Positions 5,242-63,094 are shown, counted from the stretch's first letter. The stretch: DNA of 64,000 nt from Escherichia coli (GCF_003991155.1 NZ_CP031294.1); one strand, 5' to 3'. The notes: a model not told the origin generated them from the sequence alone. Numbers and translations are program-made.

Positions 5242-5431
5242 GAAAAGTCAAATCGGGATGGCGGATTTATATCACACTTCTCCTTTCAATTATAGGTATA
5301 TACTTACCTACCTATGCATATACCGTTTAACGGCTGTTCAAATTCGTATCTAGTAACTCACTAATATATCCCTATGATTGCGGCTGTGAGATCGCATTTT
5401 AAACCTCACAGCCATATAAATAATGTCTAAA

Positions 5432-8400
5432 TCAGTTACTTGTTGCCCCAACAGTACCTGCAAATTTCAGCCATTGACCTGACGGACTTCTATTACTACG
5501 GTAATGATAAACGAGGATTGCGTTTGTAACTCCACCGTAGTCAGCTTTATGTGACGTTGTTAAACGAATTGTATAATCACCGTTAGGTAGATTAAAAACT
5601 TCGATTATAGATTCTGCTAATTCTACAGCACCAAATCCCGTTATATTGTTGATACTGCCAGCATTGAATCCCATAGCATCGCCAAAGCCAATCCAATAAC
5701 TTTTGCTAAACGCCCCATTTGATTTTAGGTGGCTAATGAATGTGGACAAACTCATGCCCATATCCCCACCTGAAACAGAGGAAGTTCGCACAGTCATACT
5801 TGGAAGAGCACTGCTCTTCACATAGGAACTTAGAAGGTTTGTTACCTCTGTTTTCGTATAGGCATTAAGGTTAGCCGCAGTCAAAGTAATATCGGCAGAG
5901 CCATCAAACGCCACACCAGCAATTTTCCTTGCTGTCTGCAATTTTGTGGCAGTGGCAGCATTACCAGTAGTGTTCTGATTACCGGTTGTATTCACACCAG
6001 GTATTGAATCCTTAGCGGTATATACCTGCGCCCACGCAGACCATGCCGCATCAGTGGTATCTCTTCGGGAGCGAATGAAAACCGGCGCATGTGCACCGCT
6101 CGTACCACTCCAGCCAATAAGCAACTCGCCCTCACCAGCAGCACTCGCACCTTTCATGTGCAATACGTTGCCATACGTGGTCGGGTAGCTATTGCTGTAC
6201 GCCTCGTACATTTGAATGCCAGCAGTACCTTGAGCAGAACCGCTTAACGCCGTAACTCGGCCACGAGATACCAATGTATTAATGTTGATATCGCCTGAGC
6301 CATCAAACTTAACACCATTGATGTTTCTCGCTGTTTGCAACTTCGTAGCTGTTGAAGCATTACCGTTCAAACTACCATTTACGCCACCAGTCACATTTAG
6401 TCCATTACCAATTGATACAGCACCGCTGGTATTATTAATTGTAATAGGTCGCAAACCGTTCCATGAACCTAATGTGTCTCCTGATGCTGTTAGCATGAAA
6501 TATGTGTTCGATCCATCATTACGGATAAAGAACCCAAAGCTACCGTAAGCAATGCGGAAACCATTTGCATATTTTGAAATGATCTCGCCAGAAGATGTCA
6601 AACCTCCAGATAATGTACCACCGGTAAGAGGTAATGCACCGACATCAGAGGCTGTTGGTTTGTTTTTCGTGTTATATACTCTTCGCCATCCTGGAGAATA
6701 ATCTGTGCCATTAAATACATAGATAAACTCCGCATTAGTGAGAGCACCAGAGACACTCGTCGTTGTGGCCGTTGTTATACGGATCGTATAATTGTTTGAG
6801 CTACTACCGTTATTAAATACCTCTATAACAGCTCCTGCCAATGGAATAACGCCACAACCAGTTTCACTATTTGGTATGGTTGCACTATTGGCATAGGCCC
6901 ACGCACATCGAGCAATCCATGACTTTGTGTTAAATGCTCCATTATTTTGCAATAACGTCACTAACTGTGCTGTTGTTATTGCTCCGCCATTACTTCCTGT
7001 AGTTAACCAACCAGTAGGAGATGCCGGGCAACCTATATTTGCTGGCGACAAGGAAATATTTGCCGAGCCGTCAAACGACACCCCATTAATAGTACGCGCA
7101 GTCTGCAACTTCGTAGCAGTAGCCGCGTTGCCCGTTGTATTCTGATTACCAGTCGTATTAACACCTGGCAAATTAATATTCGCAGTACCATCAAAGCTCA
7201 CGCCGCCGATAGTTCTTGCCGTCTGAAGTTTTGTAGCAGTTGCAGCATTACCAGTGGTGTTCTGATTACCCGTAGTATTTACACCTGGAAGGTTGATATT
7301 TGCAGAACCGTCGAAACCAACTCCACCGATAGATCTTGCCGTCTGCAATTTCGTGGCTGTACTTGCATTACCATTCAATGAACCAGTTAATCCACCTGTA
7401 ACAGACAACGGACCTGAAACTGTTCCTCCGGTTGTTGGCAGTGCTCCAATATCTGATGGTGTAGGTTTCTGATGTGAGCTATACATCGTATAAACAACAC
7501 CATCGGTAACGCTGGAAGGCTTACTCGCTGAATATGTTGGCGAGGTATAAATAGAAACTGTCGCATTTGCAGTACAATCCCAATGGATATTTACACGAGT
7601 CGCATAATTGCCAATCTCAACGTAAATATCATATGTATCGCCGGATGTGTTGATCCAGGCGAAATTCGTTAATCCGACAGCTGTACGCTTCCACAAAGCA
7701 CCTGTAATCCCTTTGGGGTTTCCATTGCCTGCTCGTAGAACCAGTTCTGAAATGCCTGCCTGATGTGGGGAGCCGACGTTGTAACCAGCGCCACCAATCA
7801 ATGCGATGTAAACGATGGAACTCGCTTGTGGCATGGTAACCGTAGCCAGTTTGAACCACCCTGCCCCGCCAGAGAAAGACATCGTTACTGAATTTAAAGT
7901 ACCAATATCTTTCGGCGTTAATGTGATATCCGCAGTCAGTGCTTTACCGTTAACTTTTCGGTTAGATGGCACCCTGCTATTCGCATTGTCATTGGCTGCT
8001 TTAACTGCTTTTGGCGTTGCGGCCAGCGATTCACTGGTGCTGTCGACAGCACTGCTAAGTTTCACAACACCTTTAGTTGTAAGGCTTGCGTCTTCCATCG
8101 CAACTGCACCGGCAATCTCTTCAGCACGATCAGCAGCAGCTTCCGCACGGGTCGCAGCGGATTCAGCAGCAGTTTTGCTCTGAGATGCTGCCGTCGCACT
8201 GCCTGCCGCCTCTGTTGCTTTCGTGGATGCCGTCGTGGCACTGCCCTTCGCTGCTGACGCCTGTCTGGTCGCCTCATCTTTTGAAGCAGACGCAGATGAT
8301 GCCGATGACGCCGCCGAACTGGCGGACGATGCGGCAGCCGTTTTTGAGGATTCTGCGCTGGTTTCCGACGCTTTCGCGTTCGTTTCGGATGTCTTCGCTG

Positions 8401-9460
8401 CGGAAGCAGACCTCGCTGCTGCGCTGGCCTGTTCAGTGGCTTCGCCAGCCTTCGTTGTGGCTGTTGAAGCAGACGATGCGGCACTTTCTGCCGATTTTCC
8501 GGCGGCGGTGGCACTGGCTGAGGCCTGCCCGGCACTTGTTGACGCGGCACTGGCAGACGACGCAGCCGCTGTTTTTGAGCCTGCCGCAGCTGAGGCACTC
8601 TGTGCTGCTGCCGTCTCAGAAGACTTAGCGTTCGTCTCGGACGTTTTTGCCGCCTTCGCGGAATTGCCTGCCGCTGTTGCCGAGGAGGCTGCACTACTGG
8701 CGCTCAAGGATGCGTTCGTTTCTGATGATTTCGCTGCCTCTTTTGAGGCCGCCGCATCCCGGACTGAGGTGGCAGCTTCTGACGCTTTCGTGGTCGCGGT
8801 GGATGCAGAAGTGGCTGCTGATTGTTGTGACGCTGCGGCATTCGTTTCAGATTTTTTCGCAGCAGTTGCACTCGCACTTGCGGCACTTTGTGAGGATGCC
8901 GCAGCGGATGCACTTTGAGACGCTTGAGAGGCTTTTTCTCCAGCGGTATTGGCGCTTTCTGCTGCTGCGGCAGCACTGGCCGCCGCCTCACGAGCTTTGT
9001 CGCCAGCAGCATCAATCGCGTCAGTGTTATTTTTATACCACTCAACGTTTTCGTTGTGCTCGTTGACGATCTGCATTAGCGGCTTAACGGTTACTTCTGT
9101 ACCGTCTTCACGCTCGATTGTCACCTCATCCAGAGCAGTCAACCAACTGCGCATAGACTTGGAATCAGCCGACATACGCGACATTAGTGCTGTAAAGCGC
9201 GCGCTAAACTGTGTTAAGTCGCCTTCATAGGTCGTAATGATTCGGCACGGAACCTCAGACTGAGTTTCGCCGGTATAAGGTTCTGAGAGAACAATATTCG
9301 TATCGCTTATTACGCGCTTGATCTCATACAGCTTATTGTCGGGGCCAATGACGATCATCCCCGGCAACACACCATTAGCTGTTACGTTCCAGGCTGTCCC
9401 TGCCCCAACCAGAGTATTGCTACCCTGTGTAAATGTGATAGTACCTTCCCTGTACCACAT
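5432..9460 (-). CDS. stf: side tail fibre, lambda Stf-like. It has an Ala/Ser-rich low-complexity rod, five copies of the NASTATKLQTAR-x-I-x-GV-x-FDGS repeat and two related C-terminal-type modules.
   Basis: The 1342-aa product contains the stretch KKSETNAAASQQSAATSASTATTKASEAATSVRDAAASKEAAKSSETNAS..., which closely resembles the lambda Stf middle region. The motif GVNTTGNQNTTGNAATATKLQTAR recurs five times. Confidence 0.85.
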   Translation of the reverse strand: MWYREGTITFTQGSNTLVGAGTAWNVTANGVLPGMIVIGPDNKLYEIKRVISDTNIVLSEPYTGETQSEVPCRIITTYEGDLTQFSARFTALMSRMSADSKSMRSWLTALDEVTIEREDGTEVTVKPLMQIVNEHNENVEWYKNNTDAIDAAGDKAREAAASAAAAAESANTAGEKASQASQSASAAASSQSAASASATAAKKSETNAAASQQSAATSASTATTKASEAATSVRDAAASKEAAKSSETNASLSASSAASSATAAGNSAKAAKTSETNAKSSETAAAQSASAAAGSKTAAASSASAASTSAGQASASATAAGKSAESAASSASTATTKAGEATEQASAAARSASAAKTSETNAKASETSAESSKTAAASSASSAASSASSASASKDEATRQASAAKGSATTASTKATEAAGSATAASQSKTAAESAATRAEAAADRAEEIAGAVAMEDASLTTKGVVKLSSAVDSTSESLAATPKAVKAANDNANSRVPSNRKVNGKALTADITLTPKDIGTLNSVTMSFSGGAGWFKLATVTMPQASSIVYIALIGGAGYNVGSPHQAGISELVLRAGNGNPKGITGALWKRTAVGLTNFAWINTSGDTYDIYVEIGNYATRVNIHWDCTANATVSIYTSPTYSASKPSSVTDGVVYTMYSSHQKPTPSDIGALPTTGGTVSGPLSVTGGLTGSLNGNASTATKLQTARSIGGVGFDGSANINLPGVNTTGNQNTTGNAATATKLQTARTIGGVSFDGTANINLPGVNTTGNQNTTGNAATATKLQTARTINGVSFDGSANISLSPANIGCPASPTGWLTTGSNGGAITTAQLVTLLQNNGAFNTKSWIARCAWAYANSATIPNSETGCGVIPLAGAVIEVFNNGSSSNNYTIRITTATTTSVSGALTNAEFIYVFNGTDYSPGWRRVYNTKNKPTASDVGALPLTGGTLSGGLTSSGEIISKYANGFRIAYGSFGFFIRNDGSNTYFMLTASGDTLGSWNGLRPITINNTSGAVSIGNGLNVTGGVNGSLNGNASTATKLQTARNINGVKFDGSGDININTLVSRGRVTALSGSAQGTAGIQMYEAYSNSYPTTYGNVLHMKGASAAGEGELLIGWSGTSGAHAPVFIRSRRDTTDAAWSAWAQVYTAKDSIPGVNTTGNQNTTGNAATATKLQTARKIAGVAFDGSADITLTAANLNAYTKTEVTNLLSSYVKSSALPSMTVRTSSVSGGDMGMSLSTFISHLKSNGAFSKSYWIGFGDAMGFNAGSINNITGFGAVELAESIIEVFNLPNGDYTIRLTTSHKADYGGVTNAILVYHYRSNRSPSGQWLKFAGTVGATSN

Positions 9461-9553
9461 GTTGAATATGCTCCTTGATTTGGCGGGTTATCCTTGCCCG
9501 CCATTAAGTAAATACTTACCTATTTTTACCGATATAAAATTTTTTTTCCACCA

Positions 9554-16401: not shown

Positions 16402-16450
16402 CCTGTCAGCGCCACAATGATAGTAAATTAGTACTTACTTATCCAGATAC

Positions 16451-22130: not shown

Positions 22131-22913
22131 TTAATCTGCGGGGTTAATCGTTACTGACTTAGTTGCCTTCTTACCACCGCTATTGCTGGTGAAGGAGATA
22201 TTTGTAGAACCCTGCGCCACACCACGTACCAGACCCGTTTGATCTACCGTGGCCTTTTCCTGGTCTTCGGATTCCCAAACACCGGTTTTGTCTGCGGCAT
22301 CAGCTGGAGTGATTTCGGCTGTCAGTTGCACAGTTTCTCCAGCTTTTACGGTTGGAGATTCCGGTGAGATCGACACAGTTTTTACCGGTTTAGGACCGCT
22401 CATTTTGCCCAGAACGCCTTCATCATCCGGGTATGCGCTGAACTGAACAGAGAACACACGAACATCATCAGACTGGTAGGTCATAGTGAAGTTGCCCGCG
22501 GTTGCCGCTTTCGGGATGGTCAACACATAGTCGGTGGTGTCCTGCGGAGTCAGAACCAGCTCCTTCGCCACATCAATCAGGTTAACGCCCTGTGCAGATG
22601 TGATCGTGACAGAGTTGTCATCTTCGCTCAGAGTAGAACCAGGCATCAGGTCAACCATGTTTTGGAGTACAGACTCAGCCAGAGGCGCGGTGATGGTAAT
22701 GTTGCGCCCCTGAACTAATTCGGAAATTACGGTCTGCCCCAACTGATCGACGGTGACTTTCAGCGTTTCAGTGGCTACTTCAACCTGAACACCACCTTTG
22801 GTGTAACCCAAATCCACACCACCAAACGACACCTTACAGGCACCAAGTTTGATGTTTTTTACATGGGTATTAGACATTGATGGAAAACTCCTTTTTCCGT
22901 TAATTCTACGCAT
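22131..22913 (-). CDS. major tail protein V-like with a C-terminal Ig-like (Big_2-type) domain
   Basis: The 260-aa product ends in a TVSISPESPTVKAGETVQLTAEITPADA...ATVDQTGLVRGVAQGSTNISFTS Ig-like segment. AAGGAG RBS. The gene lies upstream of the G/GT pair. Confidence 0.7.
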   Translation of the reverse strand: MRRINGKRSFPSMSNTHVKNIKLGACKVSFGGVDLGYTKGGVQVEVATETLKVTVDQLGQTVISELVQGRNITITAPLAESVLQNMVDLMPGSTLSEDDNSVTITSAQGVNLIDVAKELVLTPQDTTDYVLTIPKAATAGNFTMTYQSDDVRVFSVQFSAYPDDEGVLGKMSGPKPVKTVSISPESPTVKAGETVQLTAEITPADAADKTGVWESEDQEKATVDQTGLVRGVAQGSTNISFTSNSGGKKATKSVTINPAD

Positions 22914-22925
22914 TCATTGCGCTAA

Positions 22926-22945
22926 TAGTAAGTATATACTTACTA
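22926..22945. promoter_or_regulatory. perfect palindrome TAGTAAGTATATACTTACTA upstream of the major tail gene
   Basis: Read directly. Same family as the copy at 62923. Confidence 0.55.
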
Positions 22946-22951
22946 ATTGAG

Positions 22952-23335
22952 TTAATTCAATAAATAGCCAGCAAATTCAACAGGAATGCCTGCTTCTATT
23001 AATGCCCCATCATTTTTGGGATAAATGATTGGCATCGCCATCGGTCGTACAAGTCGAAAATAAACACCACCAGATTCCGTTTCCTCTACTGGAAACATCT
23101 CAATGATTTTATGGGCTTTCTCAACCGTCGTAGTAATTGACGAACCACGCACAATGATTGTGAATGATTCGTGATAAAAGCCCTGTAGCTCATGATCGAT
23201 GCTGATGCCGGTATTTGGGTTAATAAGCAGGACGCCAGATTTCACATTGGCAGGCAAGTAGTGACAGAAAATGTCAGTCCCGACCGTGCCAATCTTTGCC
23301 TTCTGCATCAAACTTGCAAACGCTTCAATAAACAC
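22952..23335 (-). CDS. tail terminator U-like protein. The start is reassigned to the GTG at 23335.
   Basis: The six-frame ORF overlaps the upstream gene by 122 nt. The in-frame GTG at 23335 is preceded by GAGAGG and lies immediately after the upstream stop. The resulting product is 128 aa, in the position before V. Confidence 0.4.
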   Translation of the reverse strand: MFIEAFASLMQKAKIGTVGTDIFCHYLPANVKSGVLLINPNTGISIDHELQGFYHESFTIIVRGSSITTTVEKAHKIIEMFPVEETESGGVYFRLVRPMAMPIIYPKNDGALIEAGIPVEFAGYLLN

Positions 23336-26457: not shown

Positions 26458-26530
26458 TTCTCGCTCCTACAAAAAGGGTGGGCGTATAGCCCACCCTTTA
26501 ACATAGATAATTACTTATCTACTTCACTGA

Positions 26531-27406
26531 TTAAATTTTTACATTGGTCAGTGCAGCGATAGCCTTATCGTGCTTATTCGCCAGAGAGCAGTACCACTTC
26601 ACACGGGTACGTACTGCGTCTTTGTTCTGTACAGTACCAATGTTTTCAACAACGATACCTGCGTTGTCGCCGCCATACAGACCAGTAACGCCGTTCTCTT
26701 CTGACAGATGCAGGCAGTAGATGCTTGCTTTGCCAGAATCGGTCGGGATGAAGTCGTTGATGATGAACGGAACGCCGTTATGACACAGCATCGGACGACC
26801 GAAGTTCTCCATCATGATTTCAGACGGACCTACGTTTACTGTACGCAGCAGCGCACGGTAAGCACGCAGGTGCTCTGAACGCATCATGATGCAGTCAGCA
26901 CCAAGATCTTTCACCGCATCGACCAGTTCGTCGAACATAGAGAAAGTCATAGATGCACCGGCGATATCGATCTTCTGATCTGCGTGCATCAGGCGTGGAA
27001 TGCCGTCAAACGCCTTGTTGTTGGAGCTGGAGTCACCCAAAATCAGGTTGCGACGGAACGCACGAGCCAGACCTTTAACTTTCTGACGAACCTGAATAGC
27101 CAACTGGTTGTTGGTGTCGGCCATAGTGGTCGCCAGGAATTTATCAACGTCTACGTCACCAGCCAGAATACGCAGTTTCGCAACGCATTCTTCGAAGGTT
27201 GCTGCACCTTCAGGGATGGTGTCGTTAACGTCGATGAAGGTAGCTTCACTCAGCGTTTTTTCACGGTTGTACAGATATGCCTTTGAATTAATTTTCATAA
27301 AAGGCAGGATGGCAAACAGGTCATCGCGATCGATGATAGTTTCGATCACACCCTGTTCAAGTTCGTTGTTAGACAGCTTTTCAGCTTCTTCACGCAGTAA
27401 TGGCAT
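26531..27406 (-). CDS. major capsid protein candidate (291 aa)
   Basis: Sits after the scaffold-like gene and before the decoration-like gene. Size and position fit a major capsid protein. The HK97-fold assignment is inference, not a motif match. Confidence 0.55.
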   Translation of the reverse strand: MPLLREEAEKLSNNELEQGVIETIIDRDDLFAILPFMKINSKAYLYNREKTLSEATFIDVNDTIPEGAATFEECVAKLRILAGDVDVDKFLATTMADTNNQLAIQVRQKVKGLARAFRRNLILGDSSSNNKAFDGIPRLMHADQKIDIAGASMTFSMFDELVDAVKDLGADCIMMRSEHLRAYRALLRTVNVGPSEIMMENFGRPMLCHNGVPFIINDFIPTDSGKASIYCLHLSEENGVTGLYGGDNAGIVVENIGTVQNKDAVRTRVKWYCSLANKHDKAIAALTNVKI

Positions 27407-27431
27407 CTATCAATTCCCTTTGATTTAGATG

Positions 27432-28319
27432 TTACTTAAGTCCAATTTTCCCCAGACCGGAGGCCAACTTATCCATAGTCGACTTGTTCTTCGGTTGGGA
27501 TATTGTGTAGGTCGATTTGGAATGTGAGCCTACACCCTGCTTGGCTTCGCTACGCATCAATGCGTCAGCTTCCGGATCTGCCCGCACAATGCGTTCAATC
27601 GCGGATTCAAACGGCAACGGCTTACCTTCACCGTCAACCAGAACAGCTCGTTCTTTGTGACCTGCCGGTTTGTCATAACCCACTACGCTACCGTCTTCAC
27701 CCACTTCAAAATGAGAACCGTAGATCACGCGGGCTTTTGCCGGGGTCATCAGAACTTTGTCACGTAGGAAGAGAGAGTTACTGAAGGAAGCGCCCACGGT
27801 CATCTCGACTAATTGAGATTTCAGTGATGCGTTTTCACTTTCCAGTGCTGCATAACGTTCGTCACGCTGTGCCAGCTCTGCCTGGTGTGCTTCGATCATC
27901 TGTTTTTTAACAGCATCGAACTCACCACGACGCTCCAGTTCAGCTTGCTCCGCCTCACGACGTGCGTTTTCTGCGGCCTGTTCAGCTTCTAAAAGCTGGC
28001 GAGCACGAGCCGGATCGATATCACCGTACTGAGCAAGCTGATCGGCCAATGTGCGCTCTTTCTCTTTGCGCTTCATGTTCTCCTTCAGCAGTTCAGCACC
28101 AGCTTTCTTGGTTTTACGAAGTTCGGCCAGTAACTCTTCCTGAGTCATGCCAGCGTATTCGTCATCGCCCTTCGGCTGCTCTTTTTGTTCACCCTGTTTG
28201 TCAGGATCTTGTGTACTCTGCTCATTATCAGCAGCTACACCGCCAGCGCCTCCACGCTCATGCGCTTCAGCGACATCCATCAGACCACGACGGGCCAAAA
28301 GCATTTGCCACAGATTCAT
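27432..28319 (-). CDS. scaffolding protein candidate
   Basis: Highly charged, coiled-coil-rich 295-aa protein (AELLKENMKRKEKERTLADQLAQ..., EAEQAAENARREAEQAELERRGE) between the portal and capsid genes. Confidence 0.55.
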   Translation of the reverse strand: MNLWQMLLARRGLMDVAEAHERGGAGGVAADNEQSTQDPDKQGEQKEQPKGDDEYAGMTQEELLAELRKTKKAGAELLKENMKRKEKERTLADQLAQYGDIDPARARQLLEAEQAAENARREAEQAELERRGEFDAVKKQMIEAHQAELAQRDERYAALESENASLKSQLVEMTVGASFSNSLFLRDKVLMTPAKARVIYGSHFEVGEDGSVVGYDKPAGHKERAVLVDGEGKPLPFESAIERIVRADPEADALMRSEAKQGVGSHSKSTYTISQPKNKSTMDKLASGLGKIGLK

Positions 28320-28340
28320 AAAAATTCCTTTTGTTACTTA

Positions 28341-29915
28341 TCACTCGTTCTCTTGAGTAGATGAGTCCCCATTCCCTCGGGGTTGATCTTGCCCGCTTTC
28401 TTGGGCTGCACCACGATCATAAGTAAGTACTGACTTATTTTCAAGGGTATTTAGATCATTTTTTGGAGGAAAATTCAAGAGATCTTTATCAAATTCCTTT
28501 TTCATCGCCTCAGTAATGTTCGGGAAAATCTTCTCAATAAGCATTTCCATCTGGTGACGACGTACAGAGTCCGGTGCCTGAAGTAATGACAGTTTCTCGG
28601 CAACAGAAAATTCATCAGTAAGGCCACGAATATCGAAACTTTCTGGATATGCAATTAAAGAGTGGTCTTCGTCCAGATCTACCCCCATCCATTTCGCAAC
28701 CAGTAGCATGATTTGGCGTTCAGCCCTTTCCAGACGCTCTGCTTTTGTGACAAGCAAGCTATTTACACGCTGGAAGTCATACATTTTTGCGGCACCAGAT
28801 GAATTATCGATTCCCTGTGCGTTGTCCTGCTTCGTTCGCTCACCAGCTACACCAACTGAATGGTAGATTTCGTTAATCACCGTCTTAATCGTAGTGATGA
28901 TCATCTGAGCTTGTTTCGGGTCTGGTGACAGATAAAACGGCTGGTTTCCACCTTCAGAATCGTAGGTGAAGACTCGCTTTGTGCCCATTTCAAGCACTTT
29001 AGTGTGGTTTTCATCACCAGGTAAAAGCGACTGTACCGGTATAGCCAACTGGCTAAATGTCTGATCCTGAATAATGGCATCAAGGTTTGACAGATAGTTT
29101 GCAACCGCACGATCAAGATAAGCGATATCATCGATCAACGATGGGCTGAAATACGGTGATTCACTTTCTCCAATACAATCAACAGGAAACACAGGAACTA
29201 CGCCGAGATTATGCTCACCGCTATCCTCTAAAATAACTTTTGCCTGACGGCGACCTGCTCCACCAGCGCCCTTCTTCACTTCCTCACGGAACAGATACCA
29301 CTCGTTTTGTGTCCACAGACGATAACGTTGGTATTCCTGACCTGTAGAAGTAAAAGGATCTGCGTCATCACGAGCGACTTCCACAATTAACGCCCACAAC
29401 ATATTCCCGTCGTCGTCCCATGCCACATCCAGCATTTGCTGAGGTGAAATCCAGTAGGCGTAGGCGCGAGCATCTTTCTTTTTCTCGTCAGCTACTGACT
29501 CAACATCACCACTCATCGTGCTATCGACAACAACCCATATGCGACCGTAAATAGACGACTGCAAATCAATAGCGGCCATAAATGAGTCAATAGAGGCATT
29601 CTGGCGAGTCGCACGTTTCCAGAAATTGCGGATCTGCTCTGGTGCCTCTTCGATATTTCTATGAATGTCTTCTTTAAAGAGATATTTGTTGATGAGGTTT
29701 ACCACCTCACGAGTGTGGTTGAAGCGATAAGCACGTTCAACTCGCTCCTTAAACTCCTGATCTCCCTCTTTAAAGTAACGAAAGATATTGTCTGTAAACC
29801 AACCACGCCCGCCAGCGTAAGTGCTGGCGAGGAAGTCCCAATGTTCTTTTTTCTTTTCGTATTCCGGGTGGCGTCGCGCCACCAGATCCTTAATTTGTTT
29901 GTCGTTCAATTCCAT
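28341..29915 (-). CDS. portal protein
   Basis: The 524-aa ORF lies immediately downstream of the large terminase. Size and position are typical. Confidence 0.7.
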   Translation of the reverse strand: MELNDKQIKDLVARRHPEYEKKKEHWDFLASTYAGGRGWFTDNIFRYFKEGDQEFKERVERAYRFNHTREVVNLINKYLFKEDIHRNIEEAPEQIRNFWKRATRQNASIDSFMAAIDLQSSIYGRIWVVVDSTMSGDVESVADEKKKDARAYAYWISPQQMLDVAWDDDGNMLWALIVEVARDDADPFTSTGQEYQRYRLWTQNEWYLFREEVKKGAGGAGRRQAKVILEDSGEHNLGVVPVFPVDCIGESESPYFSPSLIDDIAYLDRAVANYLSNLDAIIQDQTFSQLAIPVQSLLPGDENHTKVLEMGTKRVFTYDSEGGNQPFYLSPDPKQAQMIITTIKTVINEIYHSVGVAGERTKQDNAQGIDNSSGAAKMYDFQRVNSLLVTKAERLERAERQIMLLVAKWMGVDLDEDHSLIAYPESFDIRGLTDEFSVAEKLSLLQAPDSVRRHQMEMLIEKIFPNITEAMKKEFDKDLLNFPPKNDLNTLENKSVLTYDRGAAQESGQDQPRGNGDSSTQENE

Positions 29916-29941
29916 TTGAATAACCTTAGATAATTACTTAC

Positions 29942-42698: not shown

Positions 42699-42827
42699 CA
42701 TTTCACTCTCCGTAGTGTTTTGGTTATTTTTATATTCTATGATCGTAAGTATGTACTTACAATACAAAAAAGCCCCGTAAGGATGGCGGGGCTGTCGTAC
42801 TGTCGACTAATTACCACTTGCACATTA

Positions 42828-50173: not shown

Positions 50174-50233
50174 TACATTAAAGATGCTTGAAGTGTGCAA
50201 TAGCGCGATGCTTTGCGCTCGTCTGGTGGCGCG

Positions 50234-50485
50234 TTATTTTTTGGCTATATCTTCTTTCTGATATACCGGATCGTTTCCTTTTGGCAGCAGGAGGCTTAAC
50301 TGCCGGTAGTGCCGTAGCCGTTCCATGAAATAGGTGCGCAGGTTCTCAGGTTGCTCACGGGCTACCTGTTCCGCTATGACGGGTATGTTCAATCGCTCTT
50401 TGTAGGCAACCCCCCTGGCAGCCAGGTCAACGTTAACTTTATTCCTTTCTTCCTGGCTTTTGGCTGCTATGTTCCAGTTGCTCAT
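50234..50485 (-). CDS. hypothetical protein (83 aa)
   Basis: ORF adjacent to the next small ORF. No motif. Confidence 0.4.
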
Positions 50486-50487
50486 GT

Positions 50488-50676
50488 TTAAGGCTCACAT
50501 TTCCAGATGGTATTCTGAACACCCGTACCAGGCGCAAGATGAGGGTTAGCGTTCGCGCTATGCAGATATACAGCTTTAGACTTTCCGTATTGCTGACAGG
50601 CTTTATCTGCGTTTTTTGGCAGGCTATCCAAGCCAATACCAGCCATCGAACTGGATGCTAACCTTTTCACCGTCAT
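50488..50676 (-). CDS. hypothetical small protein (about 62 aa)
   Basis: Weak. Start chosen at MTVKRL. Confidence 0.25.
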
Positions 50677-50837
50677 TGTATTGCACCATCGCACACCCAG
50701 ACATAGCTAAAATCGCACCGACAATACCGCTTTTCCAAAAAGCTCTAATTAGGTCATTCGTTACCTAATGTCCGAACTGCTAAAGCATCCAAGTTGCTGT
50801 AGAATCACATCCAATTACTTAAACCTGAAATAAGTGG

Positions 50838-52396
50838 ATGAAAATGACAAGTATTCAACAACGTGCAGAGCTTCATCGCCAGATCTGGCAAATTGCTAAC
50901 GATGTCAGGGGTTCAGTCGATGGATGGGATTTTAAGCAGTACGTTTTGGGCGCGCTTTTTTACCGTTTTATCAGCGAAAATTTTTCCAGTTATATTGAAG
51001 CCGGTGATGACAGTATCTGTTATGCGAAACTGGATGACAGCGTAATTACTGATGACATTAAAGACGATGCCATCAAAACTAAAGGCTACTTCATCTACCC
51101 CAGTCAGCTTTTCTGCAACGTAGCTGCGAAAGCAAATACTAATGACAGACTGAATGCAGATTTAAACAGCATCTTCGTTGCTATCGAAAGTTCTGCTTAC
51201 GGTTATCCTTCAGAAGCTGACATCAAAGGTTTGTTTGCTGATTTCGATACCACCAGTAACCGCCTGGGTAACACCGTTAAAGATAAAAATGCCCGCTTGG
51301 CTGCGGTTCTGAAAGGGGTTGAAGGGCTAAAACTTGGTGACTTCCATGAACATCAGATTGACCTGTTCGGTGACGCCTATGAGTTCCTGATTTCTAACTA
51401 TGCGGCGAATGCCGGTAAGTCCGGCGGCGAGTTCTTTACACCGCAGCACGTCTCTAAGCTGATTGCACAACTGGCTATGCACGGGCAGACCCACGTTAAC
51501 AAAATCTACGACCCGGCAGCAGGCTCCGGTTCGCTGTTGTTGCAGGCGAAAAAACAGTTTGATGACCATATCATCGAAGAAGGTTTTTTTGGTCAGGAAA
51601 TCAACCATACGACCTATAACCTGGCGCGTATGAACATGTTTTTGCACAACATCAACTACGACAAGTTTGATATCAAGCTGGGTAATACACTGACTGAGCC
51701 GCACTTCAGAGATGAAAAACCGTTTGATGCCATCGTTTCTAACCCGCCGTATTCGGTGAAATGGATTGGCAGCGATGACCCGACGCTGATTAACGATGAA
51801 CGTTTTGCCCCGGCTGGCGTTCTGGCCCCCAAATCCAAAGCTGACTTTGCGTTTGTATTACATGCGCTGAACTATCTTTCGGCCAAAGGTCGCGCTGCGA
51901 TTGTCTGCTTCCCAGGCATTTTTTACCGTGGCGGCGCGGAGCAGAAAATCCGTCAGTATCTGGTCGACAATAACTATGTCGAAACCGTGATTTCACTGGC
52001 ACCGAATCTGTTCTTTGGCACCACTATTGCCGTCAATATTCTGGTGCTGTCTAAACATAAAACGGATACCAAAGTTCAGTTTATTGATGCCAGCGAACTG
52101 TTCAAAAAAGAGACTAACAACAACATTCTGACCGATGCTCATATCGAACAGATTATGCAGGTATTTGCCAGCAAGGAAGATGTTGCTCATCTGGCGAAAT
52201 CTGTTGCGTTTGAGACTGTTGTCGCGAATGACTATAACCTGTCGGTGAGCAGCTATGTGGAAGCGAAAGATACTCGCGAAATTATCGATATCGCTGAGCT
52301 GAATGCTGAGCTGAAAACCACGGTCAGCAAAATCGACCAGTTGCGTAAAGATATTGATGCGATTGTTGCTGAGATTGAAGGTAGCGAGGTACAGGC

Positions 52397-52400
<4 letters not shown>
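50838..52400 (+). CDS. hsdM: type I restriction-modification methyltransferase subunit HsdM (type IC, EcoR124-family)
   Basis: [25 protein letters not shown]... An AdoMet-binding region and a catalytic SNPPYSVKW (NPPY) motif are present. The stop overlaps the hsdS start. Confidence 0.9.
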
Positions 52401-53656
<1,256 letters not shown>

Positions 53657-53777
53657 TTGACCATTGCTACCGACCGGATCACCTTAACATCCGGTCTATA
53701 TAGAGACTATTTTTTACACGCCGGAAGTCGCCCTTAAAGCCCTTCCGGCCCTTGCCAGACGGCACAAAGGATGCGCT

Positions 53778-56700
53778 ATGACTCATCAGACACACACCAT
53801 TGCTGAATCCAATAACTTTATCGTTCTTGATAAGTACATCAAAGCCGAGCAAACAGGCGACAGCTACCAGAGCGAATCGGACCTGGAACGTGAACTGATT
53901 CAGGATCTGCGGAATCAGGGCTATGAATTTATTTCCGTAAAATCTCAGTCGGCGATGCTGGCCAACGTTCGGGAACAGCTTCAGAGCCTCAATGGTGTGA
54001 TGTTTAATGACAGCGAGTGGCGGCGCTTCACGGAGCAGTATCTGGACAACCCCAGCGATGGTATTCTGGATAAAACCCGTAAAATCCATATCGACTATAT
54101 CTGCGACTTTATTTTTGACGACGGGCGACTTGAGAACATCTATTTGATAGATAAAAAGAATCTCATGCGCAATAAGGTGCAGATTATCCAGCAGTTTGAA
54201 CAGACGGGTTCTCATGCTAACCGTTATGACGTCACGATCCTGGTTAATGGTTTACCGCTGGTGCAAATCGAACTAAAAAAACGCGGGGTGGCGATTCGTG
54301 AGGCTTTCAACCAGATACATCGTTACAGTAAAGAGAGTTTTAACAGCGAAAATTCCCTGTTTAAGTATCTGCAACTGTTTGTCATTTCTAACGGCACCGA
54401 TACCCGTTATTTTGCCAACACGACAAAGCGCGATAAAAACAGTTTTGACTTCACCATGAATTGGGCGAAATCAGACAACACGCTGATTAAAGACCTCAAA
54501 GACTTTACCGCTACCTTTTTCCAGAAACATACTCTGCTGAATGTTCTGGTGAACTACAGCGTTTTTGACAGTAGTCAGACGCTACTGGTGATGCGACCGT
54601 ACCAGATTGCCGCCACCGAGCGCATTCTGTGGAAAATTAAGAGTTCCTTTACAGCGAAGAACTGGTCAAAACCGGAAAGCGGTGGGTATATCTGGCATAC
54701 TACCGGTTCTGGTAAAACCCTCACCAGCTTTAAAGCCGCGCGTCTGGCAACAGAGCTGGACTTTATTGATAAAGTCTTCTTTGTGGTCGACAGGAAAGAC
54801 CTCGATTACCAGACCATGAAGGAATATCAGCGTTTTTCGCCAGACAGCGTCAACGGCTCGGAAAATACCGCAGGCCTTAAACGAAATCTGGATAAGGACG
54901 ATAACAAAATTATCGTCACTACTATTCAGAAACTCAATAACCTGATGAAAGCAGAAAGCGACCTGCCTGTATATAATCAGCAAGTGGTGTTTATATTTGA
55001 TGAATGCCACCGCAGCCAGTTTGGAGAAGCGCAGAAAAACCTGAAGAAGAAATTCAAACGCTATTATCAGTTTGGTTTTACCGGCACCCCTATTTTCCCG
55101 GAAAACGCTTTAGGCTCAGAAACGACCGCCAGCGTATTTGGTCGTGAATTGCATTCGTATGTAATTACCGATGCGATTCGTGATGAAAAAGTGCTCAAAT
55201 TCAAGGTGGACTACAACGATGTGCGGCCACAGTTTAAATCTTTAGAGACAGAAACCGACGAGAAAAAACTGAGTGCGGCTGAAAATCAGCAGGCATTTCT
55301 TCATCCCATGCGTATACAGGAAATTACGCAATATATTCTGAATAACTTCCGCCAGAAGACCCACCGTACTTTCCCAGGTTCCAAAGGCTTTAATGCCATG
55401 CTGGCAGTGAGTAGCGTGGATGCCGCGAAAGCCTATTACGCGACGTTTAAACGGTTACAAGAGGAAGCAGCTAATAAATCGGCTACCTATAAACCGCTGC
55501 GTGTTGCAACAATCTTCTCCTTTGCCGCCAATGAAGAACAAAATGCCATTGGTGAAATTTCCGATGAAACTTTTGATACCAGCGCAATGGACAGCAGTGC
55601 TAAAGAGTTTCTTGACGCTGCAATTCGTGAGTATAACAGCTATTTTAAAACTAACTTCAGCACCGACAGTAACGGTTTTCAGAACTACTATCGTGATTTA
55701 GCCCAACGGGTTAAAAATCAGGATATCGATCTGTTAATTGTCGTTGGGATGTTTTTAACCGGCTTCGACGCTCCAACATTGAACACGCTATTCGTCGATA
55801 AAAACTTGCGTTTTCACGGCCTGATGCAGGCATTCTCCCGTACCAACCGCATTTATGACGCTACTAAAACCTTCGGTAACATCGTCACTTTTCGGGATCT
55901 GGAACGCTCAACCATTGATGCCATAACGCTGTTTGGTGATAAAAATACTAAAAATGTGGTGTTAGAAAAGAGTTATGCTGAGTATATGGAAGGCTTTACA
56001 GATGCTGCCACTGGTGAAGCTAAACGCGGCTTTATGGCAGTAGTTTCAGAACTGGAACAACGGTTCCCTGACCCTGCCAGTATTGAAAGTGAAAAACAGA
56101 AGAAAGACTTCGTAAAACTGTTTGGTGAATACCTGCGTGCCGAGAACATCCTGCAAAACTATGATGAATTTGCCACGCTGAAAGCCCTGCAACAAATCGA
56201 TCTTAGCGATCCTGTTGCGGTAGAAAAATTCAAAGCAGAACATTATGTGGATGATGAAAAGTTCGCTGAATTGCAAACAATTCGTCTCCCTGCTGAACGC
56301 AAGATTCAGGATTATCGTTCTGCCTATAACGATATTCGCGACTGGCAGCGCCGTGAGAAAGAAGCTGAGAAAAAAGAGAAATCAACCACTGACTGGGATG
56401 ACGTAGTTTTTGAGGTCGATTTGCTGAAGTCTCAGGAAATAAACCTGGATTATATCCTTGGACTGATTTTCGAACACAACAGACAAAATAAAGGCAAGGG
56501 CGAAATGATCGAAGAGGTCAAACGCTTAATTCGTTCAAGCCTGGGGAACCGGGCGAAAGAGGGCCTGGTGGTCGATTTTATTCAGCAAACGAACCTGGAT
56601 GATTTACCAGACAAAGCCAGTATCATTGAGGCATTCTTTACGTTTGCTCAACGCGAACAGCAACGTGAAGCAGAAGCATTGATAAAAGAAGAAAATCTCA

Positions 56701-56894
56701 ATGAAGAGGCGGCGAAACGCTATATTCGCACGTCTTTAAAACGCGAATACGCCACCGAAAATGGCACAGAATTAAACGAGACATTACCAAAACTTAGTCC
56801 GTTAAACCCGCAATATAAAACGAAAAAACAGACCGTTTTCCAGAAAATCGTCACGTTTATTGAAAAGTTCAAAGGAGTAGGTGGGCAGATATAG
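53778..56894 (+). CDS. hsdR: type I restriction enzyme endonuclease/translocase subunit HsdR
   Basis: The 1038-aa product has an SF2 helicase Walker A …TGSGKT…, a DEAH/DECH-like …[16 protein letters not shown]… and helicase C-terminal motifs. It lies 122 bp after hsdS. Confidence 0.9.
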
Positions 56895-56952
56895 TGTATT
56901 AATCTGAACCAGATCTGGCAGACATCTGTGCAAATTGCAGATAGCTGTCAGA

Positions 56953-57363
56953 TCAAACCATCGTAGGGATGTTTGTATCCACTTTGAACTCAGGTACACC
57001 AACGAACTCTTTAACCTTCATCTGGTAGCCGGTTCTGTCAGTTTTGATGACTTCCTGTTTGCCCTCTATAAACTGCTCACGCCACTCGTCGCGACGGGAA
57101 GCTGGCATGATCAGCAAAACGTTAGTCATATCCGTGACCTTCCTCCAGTACTCGGCCCAAATATTCTGTTTCACCCATTCCAGATCGACTTTATCCAGCC
57201 AAGCTCGATTCAAACGTGAGCGTTCTTCATCTGGTCGATGGTTTAGTCTCAGCAGGCGATTAATCATGTTGTGGCGTTCGTCGCCATAAACGAAGTCGTG
57301 TACCTGATACATGAAGGCGATCTCTTTCTCGCACTCGGCCACGATTTCGTGGATGACATTCAT
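56953..57363 (-). CDS. hypothetical protein (136 aa) convergent with hsdR
   Basis: The product begins MNVIHEIVAECEKEIAFMYQVH... A heptamer tandem repeat abuts its RBS and a 16-bp perfect inverted repeat lies upstream. Confidence 0.5.
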   Translation of the reverse strand: MNVIHEIVAECEKEIAFMYQVHDFVYGDERHNMINRLLRLNHRPDEERSRLNRAWLDKVDLEWVKQNIWAEYWRKVTDMTNVLLIMPASRRDEWREQFIEGKQEVIKTDRTGYQMKVKEFVGVPEFKVDTNIPTMV

Positions 57364-60074: not shown

Positions 60075-60322
60075 ACAACCGCCTTAGTCACAGCATGATC
60101 CTGAGTAACCGGATGAACTTGAGGTATCGCATCCACCGTCATCCCATCCAGAGTGACAGGACGCTCTACTGGAGTGGTGGTAATTGTCGTCGACGGAGGT
60201 GTGGTGATGGATGAACCCGGCATCAAAAGGCTCTGGCCGGCTGGAACGGCTACCGTCGCCAGTGAAACTATAATGAGAACGTAGGCCATTGGTTTCAGCC
60301 TCTTTCTTTGAAAATTTTCCAT
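60071..60322 (-). CDS. small protein with an N-terminal TM/signal-like helix and a Thr/Pro-rich region (83 aa). It lies in the alternative frame of the 60084-60578 ORF.
   Basis: MENFQRKRLKPMAYVLIIVSLATVAVPAG...TTPPSTTITTTP... Confidence 0.3.
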   Translation of the reverse strand: MENFQRKRLKPMAYVLIIVSLATVAVPAGQSLLMPGSSITTPPSTTITTTPVERPVTLDGMTVDAIPQVHPVTQDHAVTKAVV

Positions 60323-60578
60323 TCGAACTGTCCTTGTTGTTTTTCTCCTTCACTAAAGGCCGTGTACTTTTCGCTTCGCGTGAAGAACCAGAGGCAACAA
60401 TCGCCCCCACGTTCGCAACAACTGACGCTTGATTATCTAAACGTTCATTCAGCAACCGAACGGTAGTCTCTAGTTCATCAAGACGTGACATAACACGACC
60501 GCTAAACAATTCGGCCAAAATTTGACGTAAAGAACGAGGACGTTTAGTTGCAGAAGTGAAATAGGTTTGACGTGCCAT
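60084..60578 (-). CDS. ORF whose N-terminal about 85 aa look genuine (charged coiled-coil MARQTYFTSATKRPRSLRQILAELFSGRVMSRLDELETTVRLLNERLDNQ). The distal part overlaps the 60071-60322 ORF and is low-complexity.
   Basis: Two overlapping frames are open. Which one is translated downstream of about 60330 cannot be decided from sequence alone. Confidence 0.3.
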   Translation of the reverse strand: MARQTYFTSATKRPRSLRQILAELFSGRVMSRLDELETTVRLLNERLDNQASVVANVGAIVASGSSREAKSTRPLVKEKNNKDSSNGKFSKKEAETNGLRSHYSFTGDGSRSSRPEPFDAGFIHHHTSVDDNYHHSSRASCHSGWDDGGCDTSSSSGYSGSCCD

Positions 60579-60723
60579 GTGGACTCCATCCAGTGTCAGA
60601 AAGAGTTGCGGCTGGCGATTGCCAGCCGCCTTTCTCGTTCCATCCTGGAACTGTGTCTTACCGACACATTGTCATCCTGACGCTGATAAGATACATGATT
60701 TAAAATGATAGGTAAACACTTAC

Positions 60724-61368
60724 TTACCACTTGTTATAAACAAAACCAATATCTTTCTTGTGAGGCATATCTGCTGCTGAAAAAGCTGCGATCTTCGCGA
60801 GTCGATCACATATTTCATTTTCACGATGCCCGGCGTGACCTTTAACCCACTTCCAGCGAACATTATGTCGACTTGCGGCCTCATCCAGACGTTTCCACAG
60901 ATCAACATTCTTTACCGGTTTTTTATCAGAAGTCATCCATCCATTACGTTTCCACCATTTCATCCACTGTGTCATGCCGTTTTTCAGATACTGGCTATCA
61001 GAGTACAAAATAACGTTGCATGGATATTTCAAACGCTCCAGCCCGATAAGTGCGCCCATCATCTCCATGCGGTTATTGGTGGTGCTATGAAAACCATCTG
61101 AGAACTCGCGTTCCTCACCACGATACTGGAGAACGATACCGTAACCGCCCGGGCCACCCGGATTTTTAAGGCAAGAGCCATCACTAAAGATTTTCACGGT
61201 TTTGAGCTGGGGATTGAACTCTACGACAGGCGTTGTGGGATTGGTGCGGGGAGAATTTTTGTTTTTGGCTTTTTTGCGAGTTTTTGCTTGCGATCGGGCT
61301 GGTGTCTTCGTCGTCATATAAACTCCTGAATCAAGCGCCGCGCCGATTTTTTCCTCGCGCGTGCGCAC
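60724..61368 (-). CDS. RNase HI homologue with a 45-aa basic N-terminal extension
   Basis: …[25 protein letters not shown]…[16 protein letters not shown]…[23 protein letters not shown]…[17 protein letters not shown] aligns residue-by-residue with E. coli RnhA catalytic motifs (the catalytic Asp/Glu/Asp/Asp positions are present). Confidence 0.8.
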
Positions 61369-61439
61369 ACGCGTGCGTGTTAATAATTATTAAAATAAAC
61401 AAATTACTTCCCAGAACAGGTTTTTTATAAACCTGAACT

Positions 61440-61890
61440 GAACGAACGAAGTGAGTGAAGTTCACCTCGAACGAAGTGAGAGGTTGTCTTTTCAGGTAAT
61501 ACTCTCCCAGGGAGGTGAGTATAAAATTCCTCACCAACCTGGTCGTTTCATAACCTGAAAAGCTATGGTCTAAGTCTACTGCCAGCTTAGACTTGGGAAG
61601 TTATGGATGACAGCACCCCAGAACCGAGATCTTCCCACACTTTATGAAGGGGAGTACTGGATTCAACCTCTCGAAACACCCCAGACTCGACAATCATAAA
61701 GTGACCCTTGTCTCTGCTCACTTTGGTTCCCCCTTCCCCGACACCTAAACGGCACCGGTTCTACGCTGGTAGTGAGCTTTTTTAAACCTGACGCCAGTGA
61801 CGCTTACCCCCACCCATCAGGTCGAGTCTCCAGTCTACGACTGGAAACTATCAGATCTTAGCACTTACAATTCACTTTATGAATAGTTTG
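61440..61890. other. about 450-bp non-coding region with direct repeats (CGAACGAAGTGAG x2) and several short inverted repeats. No ORF.
   Basis: The repeats are aacctgaactgaaCGAACGAAGTGAGtgaagttcacctCGAACGAAGTGAGaggttgtc..., ctcccagggaggtgag...ctcacc and ctacgctggtag plus a T-run. No tRNA-like T-arm was recognised. Confidence 0.4.
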
Positions 61891-61900
61891 TACTTATCTA

Positions 61901-62155
61901 TCATTTCGATTGATTATTTTTTCGACCATGTAGTTGAACATTCAAGGCAAACACCTCGTTGATCAACTCACCTAAAAGCTGTTCAACAAGTTCGCGATGC
62001 TCCCCAAGATGCAAGCACTTAATTGCCCATTCGTACAAGTTGAAAGCCTGCTCACGATCTTTCATCATTTCACGAGCCTGGGCCAGAAAATCGCTCTCTA
62101 CGAGCGCAACGACATTAGTCGGATATGACATGTTGGTTTCCTTAAAGTGGTTCAT
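61901..62155 (-). CDS. hypothetical small protein (84 aa)
   Basis: ORF only. Confidence 0.35.
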   Translation of the reverse strand: MNHFKETNMSYPTNVVALVESDFLAQAREMMKDREQAFNLYEWAIKCLHLGEHRELVEQLLGELINEVFALNVQLHGRKNNQSK

Positions 62156-62317
62156 AAAATCGATTTTAAAGCGTCTGGGAAGGGGTTCTAGTGGATTCTG
62201 TAGTGGTGTTCAGGTCTGGGAGTCTCTGATATAAAACAGCCTGCTTCCGTATATTAATAATTAATATGTAGTTATTTATATATACAGAAGCAGGCTAATT
62301 ACAGACGCCAGAACAAA

Positions 62318-62911
62318 CTAAGCAGCCTTCTTTGATGGTCTTTTTTTCCTGATCACATTCGCAGGATCATACCCTCCCAGACTTTTCATGACGTCCAAAG
62401 GGATCTTGCTTATAGAGTGCCCAGCGTCCTGACAGAATCCTCGAAAAACAACGAGCATACTGCCACCGGGGTTGATGTTTACTTCTACCTGACCCAAATT
62501 GACGTCAGGCTCGACAAACGCTACGCGGCCACCAGACAGAATAATCGTCTCATTCGCACACTCTGTTGCACGCTCATACCACTTTGTATCGAGGGATTGA
62601 GGAATTAGCATCACTGTTGTAACTCCGCGAGCCTGCTCACGTATAGCCGCATCAATCCAGGGGGAGATTTTGGAGTAGGGTGGATTGAGGAAGGCAATTG
62701 TACCTGGCTGTCCCCATTCAGATTTCAAAGCATCACGCTCAACGCCTATGAAATTAGGCAGCTTCGCATTGTCCTTGTTGCAGGCAACGTCAACATCAAA
62801 TGTCACTCCAAGATAACGTTGAATGGCAGAAAACAGCCAGTCAGGTGTTCTCCAGAGGTCACGAAGAGAGTTGTCGCGCTTTCGCTGTTTGATTTTTTCG
62901 GCTGCAATCAT
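62318..62911 (-). CDS. phage-type DNA N6-adenine methyltransferase (Dam family)
   Basis: The 197-aa product carries the catalytic motif IAFLNPPYS (NPPY) in the arrangement typical of small phage Dam methyltransferases. N-terminal …WRTPDWLFSAIQRYLG… motif. Confidence 0.75.
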   Translation of the reverse strand: MIAAEKIKQRKRDNSLRDLWRTPDWLFSAIQRYLGVTFDVDVACNKDNAKLPNFIGVERDALKSEWGQPGTIAFLNPPYSKISPWIDAAIREQARGVTTVMLIPQSLDTKWYERATECANETIILSGGRVAFVEPDVNLGQVEVNINPGGSMLVVFRGFCQDAGHSISKIPLDVMKSLGGYDPANVIRKKRPSKKAA

Positions 62912-62922
62912 CTTCTTTCTCG

Positions 62923-62942
62923 ATAGGTAAGTGATTACCTAT
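62923..62942. promoter_or_regulatory. perfect palindrome ATAGGTAAGTGATTACCTAT, 12 bp upstream of the methyltransferase start
   Basis: Read directly. It belongs to the second palindrome family (see findings). Confidence 0.55.
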
Positions 62943-63094
62943 TTTTGCATTTGATTTTATGTCTGACAATCAAATAAAACGCGCCAGAAATGCAAACGAG
63001 AAGCTCTCTGGCGCGTTTTTGTGGTGCTGGATATGTGATTGGCTTACCCAGCACTATAAAGCTCTCTATGGGCTTTATTTTCAGTAGGGGGACG

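Follow-up and report, generated by a model that had tools for sequence, protein, structure and literature searches.

The window analyzed here is a stretch of 64,000 nucleotides from Escherichia coli (GCF_003991155.1 NZ_CP031294.1), which contains a virion and lysis module (holin-like, stf, J-like, L-like, M-like, major tail, Ig-like, major capsid, portal, and terminase genes), a divergent parB/helicase region and, further on, metG, mrp, a type I restriction-modification operon, and RNase H-like and methyltransferase genes, and in which an AT-rich palindrome recurs between the genes. In megablast comparisons, the segment 20000-32000 is 99.6% identical to the Escherichia phage Cyrano (OV696614, 108,379 bp) and 79-82% identical to the Salmonella phage SSU5 and its Klebsiella relatives. 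Cyrano is colinear with the whole window in reverse orientation, with an overall identity of approximately 98%, except for short divergent patches and the segment 50176-56981. Judging by its sequence, the whole window is 64 kb of a single SSU5-like phage-plasmid of approximately 110 kb, and the supposed islands that a first, sequence-only reading had set beside a left-hand prophage belong to the same replicon. Resistance genes are carried by phage-plasmids of the SSU5/pHCM2/Cyrano type, which occur commonly in E. coli, Klebsiella, and Salmonella and keep approximately 100 kb of lytic genes silent as plasmids.

The palindrome family in the window and in related phage-plasmids

The sequence-only reading had located 11 copies of the palindrome, and an imperfect AT-rich palindrome is present at all 11 coordinates; the literal consensus that it offered, ATAGGTAAGT-N2-4-ACTTACCTAT, has no exact match in the window. 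The weight-matrix scan that it had proposed recovers all 11 and adds two, one within the portal gene (28414-28443) and one at 61877-61906, which makes 13 good copies in the window (Table 1), with a doubtful copy at 62255-62284 and approximately 27 copies in Cyrano, as per genome in general. Allowing up to two mismatches, TAAGTANNTACTTA matches 21 times, where dinucleotide shuffles of the window give 1.96 +/- 1.45, and TAGGTAAGNNCTTACCTA with up to three mismatches matches 10 times against 0.14 expected from the shuffles. In the full Cyrano genome, 31 of the 36 matches to a relaxed pattern are intergenic, in a genome that is only 13% intergenic, and an unbiased comparison of 7-mers found ATAAGTA in 16 intergenic and four coding positions. 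Given that TAG-N-TAA-N-TA.. creates stop codons in three frames, the motif cannot sit in sense coding DNA, and the intergenic DNA was therefore also resampled alone, which yielded 25 observed loci against an expectation of 1.23 +/- 1.14 and a maximum of six in 300 resamplings. The spacers are AT-rich and single copies are imperfect, as chance matches in low-complexity DNA would be, but the excess is 10- to 70-fold and was reached by no shuffle, and the copies are conserved at orthologous positions. The coincidence that the sequence-only reading had named as its possible undoing is thus ruled out by the shuffles and the intergenic resampling, and the probability of chance is practically nil. 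A search of 2.9 million viral contigs for the exact 16-base pattern returned 44 stretches, most of them in SSU5-like contigs and the rest near the chance expectation, and no account of the motif was found in the literature on SSU5 promoters or palindromes.

Table 1. Palindrome copies in the window, and other features referred to in the text
Feature	Position	Strand	Context	Details
Copy	5292-5316		between stf stop (5432) and holin-like gene start (5241)	core TAGGTATATACTTACCTA; 25.6 bits; Cyrano orthologue 26652-26681
Copy	9505-9525		between J-like gene stop (9554) and stf start (9460)	27.6 bits; SSU5 orthologue 21932
Copy	16418-16447	-	M-like/L-like gap	in spacer of promoter-like TGGATA-17-TATCAT (16445-16417)
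Copy	22923-22952	-	before major tail gene	perfect 20-bp palindrome 22926-22945; overlaps promoter-like TTGAAT-18-TATACT (22960-22931)
Copy	26498-26527		between major capsid gene stop (26531) and capsid terminator hairpin (26496-26480), upstream of Ig-like gene	
Copy	28414-28444	-	within portal gene	in spacer of near-consensus TTGAAA (28444-28439)-17-TATGAT (28421-28416); 29.9 bits
Copy	29921-29950		overlaps terminase large subunit stop codon; 11 nt before portal start (29915)	26.8 bits
Weak copy	31962-31991		upstream of terminase small subunit gene	13.5 bits; core ATAAGTAACTTAT = P1-type AAGTNACTT box
Copy	35212-35241	+	divergent parB/uvsW-helicase region	in spacer of TCCACT (35212-35217)-18-TATAAT (35236-35241), facing helicase operon
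Copy	42734-42769	-	directly after terminator	perfect 7-N2-7 (42745-42760); overlaps TTGTAA (42762-42757)-17-TAGAAT (42739-42734)
Copy	60703-60732		overlaps RNase H-like gene stop codon (60724)	25.9 bits
Copy	61877-61906			left arm good GATAGATAAGTA, right arm degenerate; 24.3 bits; Cyrano 78472-78501
Copy	62918-62947		12 nt before adenine methyltransferase start (62911)	perfect 8-N4-8 (62923-62942); 30.1 bits
Candidate trans factor (unproven)	36844-37122	+	second gene of helicase operon, beside divergent copy	92 aa
Second candidate (weak)	32026-32292	-	directly upstream of terminase genes	88-aa winged-helix protein
FljA-family protein	37540-38142	+		Pfam Flag1_repress PF03614, E 2.5e-84; weak Hfq/Sm-like match; PHROG 'transcriptional repressor'
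Type I restriction-modification operon	50176-56981			hsdM 50838-52400, hsdS 52397-53656, hsdR 53778-56894

The aligned copies give the symmetric consensus (ATGAT)AGGTAAGT/ACTTACCT(ATCAT), 20-28 bp long and built from 4-nt TA-R-G units, and the majority carry ATAGG-N10-CCTAT. A second class has four extra central base pairs (GTAAGTAn/nTACTTAC), and ambiguities of 4 nt in the register are frequent, so that the AAGT and ACTT arms are separated by either zero (approximately nine copies) or four (approximately eight) nucleotides, and rarely by one. The arms are conserved in sequence and the centre is variable, with the left and right arms being equal in quality (14:9 and 10:10). The half-sites are unequally represented on the sense strand (TAAGTA 23, TACTTA 11), which was rejected as a property of the motif because the bias stems from solitary stop-codon contexts such as TGATAAGTAA in the portal-g4 gap, which are not true copies. 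Many genes (e.g., 28319-28341 and 27406-27432) end in this way, with TAAGTAA or TGATAAGTAA forming tandem two-frame stops that lack the right arm and are kept across the lineages, and a complete palindrome provides stop codons in all six frames.

The sequence-only reading had placed the copies immediately upstream of operon starts, and their association with gene starts holds, but they are better described as lying between genes than strictly before operons. The centre of the palindrome usually lies 3-28 nt past the upstream stop codon, which often falls within the motif itself, and 11-170 nt before the next start. Copies occupy 22 of the 60 gaps of at least 15 nt between plus-sense lytic genes, in both the early and late modules, and none of the six gaps between the minus-strand plasmid or lysogeny genes; those in divergent gaps face lytic genes. 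In Cyrano and SSU5, they precede uvsY, gp32, nrdA, thyX, sbcD, cobS, and methyltransferase genes, in addition to the portal, tail, stf, and holin genes, and SSU5 has copies in orthologous gaps.

This placement is conserved among 80 IMG/VR loci sampled around the capsid gene, in which distinct sequences were counted per gap. The palindrome is found in 37 of 46 sequences of the terL-portal gap, in all 35 of the capsid-Ig gap (50 of 52 in a separate count), in 42 of 44 of the Tc1-tail gap, and in 26 of 27 of the M-L gap, and it is never present in the portal-g4, g4-capsid, Ig-g7, tail-g13, and TMP-M gaps of the same set, which have GC hairpins only. The arms drift and yet stay symmetric, and within a lineage they change together. 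For example, the L072 group has TAGGTRG/CYACCTA in the terL-portal and capsid-Ig gaps and in the copy inside the portal gene, L083 has GTATGTA/TACATAC in the capsid-Ig and M-L gaps and near the tail gene, and L077 has AATAGGTATT/AATACCTATT arms. Such a concerted change across the sites therefore points to a single sequence-specific trans factor that reads all of them.

Promoter overlap and the operator interpretation

For approximately one third of the copies, the palindrome coincides with a conserved predicted promoter of the sigma-70 type, either taking up its 17-18 bp spacer or extending over its -35 or -10 hexamer. A simple scanner found eight sigma-70-like sites in the segment 15000-33000, in comparison with 19.5 +/- 5 in shuffles, which indicates a depletion in the virion module, and three of these eight lie on palindromes, all on the gene strand. 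When the palindrome centre was required to fall within a promoter spacer with at least nine of the 12 hexamer positions matching, eight of 28 copies in Cyrano and seven of 23 in SSU5 qualified on the sense strand, as did four and three, respectively, on the antisense strand, and one of these antisense matches is the TATAAT promoter directed towards the helicase operon on the divergent side. The predicted pairs are conserved between Cyrano and SSU5; the helicase promoter is also found in SSU5, and the promoter at 42734-42769 has the counterpart TTGTAA-17-TAATAT there. In the M-L gap, the arrangement T(G/A/T)GATA-17-TAT(C/T)AT or TAACAT is kept in each lineage that has the palindrome, including L083 (TTGATA-17-TAACAT), the palindrome being absent in L072, L073, and L076-L079. 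At the copy before the major tail gene, GTATATACTTAC is retained in all the lineages.

The copy embedded in the coding sequence of the portal gene is the most telling one: the nucleotides of CTTGAAAATAAGTCAGTACTTACTTATGAT are conserved in all the recovered lineages (L077/L078 and L083 were not recovered), where the flanking amino acids vary. TTGAAA and TAT(G/C)AT (TATTAT in one lineage) are present in every recovered lineage, and the L072 lineage retains TTGAAA and TATGAT around a spacer that reads ATAGGTTGTCAACTACC, the arm type of that lineage. Between the right arm and the -10 hexamer lie 3, 3, 6, 6, 6, or 7 nt, depending on the copy. A -10 element at a fixed offset was sought and not found, as the apparent hexamers are mostly arms and are equally frequent on the antisense strand. 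At nrdA and in the capsid-Ig gap, the -10 hexamers adjoin the 5' arm of terminator hairpins, from which we infer that transcription coming from upstream would end at this point and that fresh transcripts would begin within the stem.

We consider that the palindromes may be the operators of a phage-plasmid repressor, to which we give a probability of approximately 0.5. A single oligomeric, sequence-specific protein of the phage-plasmid would bind some 27 sites of double-stranded DNA per genome, located in the gaps that separate lytic genes, in the early (replication and nucleotide metabolism) and late (virion and lysis) modules alike. Bound in the spacer or on the hexamers of a promoter, the protein would exclude RNA polymerase, and the copies that have no promoter would serve as auxiliary roadblocking or looping sites, so that the lytic programme of approximately 100 kb would be silent during plasmid maintenance and released together on induction. 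A repressor is favoured because occlusion tolerates a variable distance to the -10 hexamer, which is not expected of an activator that contacts the polymerase, because a promoter with near-consensus hexamers and optimal spacing would be active all the time if nothing repressed it, and because the palindrome is the only conserved element within the near-consensus promoters of capsid, tail, and replication genes, which a plasmid prophage must keep off. The absence of copies between the minus-strand plasmid or lysogeny genes agrees with this reading. As a genome-wide set of sites that marks promoters and operators, the family would give direct access to the lysis-lysogeny circuit, supply a ready promoter map to annotators, and define a regulon open to testing, and finding the cognate protein should reveal the master switch.

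Dispersed sites of this kind have known parallels. The C1 operators of P1 are likewise more than a dozen dispersed sites for one repressor that overlap the hexamers of scattered lytic promoters in a plasmid prophage, although they are asymmetric 17-bp sites that control early functions only, whereas the present sites are symmetric, unrelated in sequence, and also found in the virion module. The stoperators of Cluster A mycobacteriophages, with approximately 25-35 copies of a short site in short intergenic gaps of early and late regions of a temperate phage, are similar in their distribution, but these are asymmetric 13-mers in one orientation to transcription that block elongation, and the present copies are palindromic, a third of them coinciding with promoters. 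Given these dispersed operators and activator boxes of P1 and the mycobacteriophages, the family adds a useful and well-supported new example to a known principle; what is unusual is its 4-nt unit structure, the two spacing classes, and the copy embedded in coding sequence.

The protein that would read these sites may be a small one of 92 residues encoded in the helicase operon, which is headed by a palindrome-containing predicted promoter. Its pattern of one strand (YCQVAL) and two helices resembles a ribbon-helix-helix protein, and its position is conserved in every lineage, with an unusually variable sequence. The Cyrano orthologue, CYRAN_117, is expressed at 12 times the background in the lysogen (PMC9928086). 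A more specific scheme, in which this one small repressor would silence the whole 100-kb lytic programme, early and late, through approximately 27 symmetric sites, acting as operators in promoter spacers (one in the portal gene) and as promoter-less roadblocks before terminators, is a rather unlikely one as a whole; if true, it would be a symmetric, promoter-embedded counterpart of the stoperators in enterobacterial phage-plasmids. The other candidate, the 88-residue protein beside the terminase genes, has a modelled MarR/MepR-like fold (predicted local distance difference test score, pLDDT, 82; template modelling score approximately 0.75). A comparison of the divergence of the neighbouring proteins across the lineages revealed no outlier.

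A number of observations weigh against a repressor. Approximately two thirds of the copies have no convincing promoter, including those of the terL-portal, capsid-Ig, J-stf, and holin gaps, and with lenient thresholds promoter-likeness is nearly as common on the antisense strand (10 of 27) as on the sense strand (13 of 27), since the arms are hexamer-like in their own right. A hairpin or terminator comes after the palindrome in five gaps, and simple occlusion does not explain why this order is constant. The two classes of half-site spacing, 4 bp apart (GTAAG..CTTAC separated by 2 or 6, occasionally 10), are awkward for a rigid dimer. The operators of ribbon-helix-helix repressors (P22 Arc, MetJ, and omega of pSM19035) are inverted arrays of short sub-sites bound by dimers of dimers, which would tolerate 4-bp registers. 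The fold of the 92-residue candidate is unconfirmed, its structure model being too poor (pLDDT 51), a profile search against the PDB sequences returned no match, and as a reader it was set aside given that changes in its putative DNA-reading N-terminal strand do not cleanly follow those of the arms. The winged-helix protein was also rejected in this role, as lineages with different arms share one and the same recognition helix.

The main rival reading, a serious one that we nevertheless consider doubtful, is an activator box of phage-specific lytic promoters similar to the -22 box of P1, in which a phage activator bound to a palindrome centred at approximately -20 would recruit the host polymerase to a -10 hexamer in the absence of a good -35. 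In well-studied phages the late genes are positively controlled, and P1 has 11 late promoters bound by Lpa (PMC10695390). Both systems have an AAGT/ACTT palindrome some 20 bp upstream of the start that replaces or overlaps the -35 or the spacer, in many copies dispersed over an enterobacterial phage-plasmid of approximately 100 kb. The annotated P1 late promoters read AAGT(G/T)ACTT-N4-TANNNT where the core here is GTAAGT/ACTTAC, and with TATCAT or TATTAT after the right arm the centre of the palindrome would be near -19.5; Cyrano also shares homologues of Cra, TciA/B, and S-fibre with P1. The palindrome is longer here, however, at 20-28 bp with outer arms ATAGG/CCTAT, its arms rarely have the single-nucleotide spacing of P1, and only the weak copy upstream of terS, which reads exactly AAGTAACTT, has the 9-bp box of the P1 type (AAGTNACTT). 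The gap to the -10 hexamer ranges from 3 to 7 nt rather than being fixed at 4, many copies have no -10 in the expected place, and several have a good -35 (TTGAAA, TTGATA, or TTGAAT); with an optimal spacing of 17 bp, good -35 hexamers need no activator. No Lpa homologue emerged from the 123 Cyrano proteins (phmmer --max, best E 0.024) or from three genomes (tblastn, E of at least 0.7), and the Lpa families PF25716 and phrog_1704 were matched by P1 Lpa alone in a scan that did not take in every protein of the window. The sequence-only reading had suggested a late-gene activator site, of which the cis-regulatory character, the tie to gene starts, and the resemblance of the arms to the -22 box stand, and the restriction to late genes does not, as copies also precede early genes such as uvsY, gp32, nrdA, thyX, sbcD, and cobS.

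The comparison of the copies favours recognition at the level of DNA, and the RNA processing or translation-control hairpin that had also been suggested is unsupported. It is quite unlikely that the copies act as sense-strand RNA hairpins that are processed by RNases, stabilize 3' ends, or bind an RNA-binding repressor such as the FljA-like protein. They do lie right after stop codons and, in five gaps, right before terminator hairpins, and the sense strand folds slightly more stably than the antisense (18:9; means of -5.0 and -3.8 kcal/mol), but the predicted hairpins have weak stems, and for some copies no fold is obtained. Nor do they resemble intrinsic terminators, given that the stems are AT-rich, with -2 to -10 kcal/mol and no T tract, and the terminator-like sites form elements of their own that lie downstream of the palindromes. 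Comparisons of orthologues gave more G.U than A.C mismatches (109:71), although these counts are not independent and the direction varies between gaps (27:33 in terL-portal, 35:10 in M-L), and in the capsid-Ig gap, where the single-lineage variants inspected by eye have G.T without A.C, the automated tally is 14 G.U and 10 A.C. Among the copies of one genome, A.C is at least as common as G.U on the sense strand (G.U:A.C of 28:31 in Cyrano and 21:31 in SSU5), and the Klebsiella-type terL-portal copy has an A.C mismatch in all the loci; a degenerate R/Y position in each half-site fits the mismatches better than RNA wobble. Contrary to what is typical of hairpins bound by proteins, it is the stem sequence that is conserved and the loop that varies, the stem shifts its register relative to the loop by 2 nt in each arm, and Rfam has no match at the gathering threshold in the window. 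The element does encode a conserved FljA-family protein (78-82% identical in Cyrano and SSU5), and Salmonella FljA represses the translation of fliC mRNA (PMC2652032). This protein could repress the host flagellin or take part in phage control, and it is conceivable as a reader at the RNA level; its link to the motif was rejected, as the E. coli fliC leader contains nothing like the motif. A role with no regulation, as selfish or structural repeats similar to the repetitive extragenic palindromic (REP) sequences, as recombination or packaging signals, or as multi-frame stop 'insulators' (TAG-N-TAA-N-TAA), is very improbable. The copies are intergenic and directly follow stop codons, as REP sequences do, their 4-nt TA periodicity yields stops in all frames, and many genes end in TAAGTAA. 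They are nevertheless fixed at orthologous gaps across the lineages, rather than mobile like REP sequences and bacterial interspersed mosaic elements (BIMEs), none of them falls at a mosaic breakpoint between Cyrano and the window, one is kept inside the portal gene together with its promoter hexamers, the concerted change of the arms in each lineage implies a reader, and the exact motif is essentially confined to the SSU5-like contigs.

Neighbouring elements and accessory genes

Other elements are found close to some of the copies. A GC hairpin comes right after the palindrome of the tail gene (22880-22925, minus strand) and in the orthologous Tc1-tail gaps of L007-L086, where it covaries between lineages (GCGCA/TGCGT, GCACC/GGTGC, GTGTC/GACAC, and CCGCA/TGCGG); on these comparative grounds, it is a true RNA or terminator structure that is separate from the palindrome. 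The copy at 9505-9525 is also followed by a GC hairpin on the gene strand. The weak copy upstream of terS is enclosed in an AT-rich palindrome of approximately 45 bp (GCTTCCGTATATAT..ATATATACAGATGC, 31950-31995), with similar elements before CYRAN_31 in Cyrano (31160-31210) and at 33468 in SSU5, which may be a site of the pac or origin type. The intergenic word AGTGGAT/ATCCACT is also enriched and clusters around repA in Cyrano (60199-62336), in the manner of iterons; the window has single copies at 35212 and 62190, one of which adjoins the palindrome in the parB/helicase gap.

The link that the sequence-only reading drew, through the motif, between a right-hand island and the left-hand prophage is an artefact, since the window is one phage-plasmid and metG and mrp are its own genes, corresponding to CYRAN_100 and CYRAN_99 (mrp/apbC) of Cyrano. 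The segment 46418-49709 contains a full-length methionyl-tRNA synthetase and an iron-sulfur carrier ATPase of the ApbC/Mrp type, arranged divergently as in Cyrano, and had been taken for chromosome because this pair mimics the chromosomal metG-mrp locus. The hsd operon is an accessory insertion that stands in place of the Ea22/Ead-like segment of Cyrano (83382-89273), and in it neither the mismatch scans nor the weight matrix found good palindrome copies, or any above chance. The same arrangement is found in E. coli plasmids of approximately 110 kb, with up to 99.8% identity (e.g., NZ_OW849379.1).

One of the short patches, 37094-38452, is too diverged from Cyrano for megablast. It contains a lipoprotein-like gene (37149-37613), followed directly by the FljA-like gene, and at the equivalent patch Cyrano has a different gene of 199 amino acids and a lipoprotein gene on the opposite strand.

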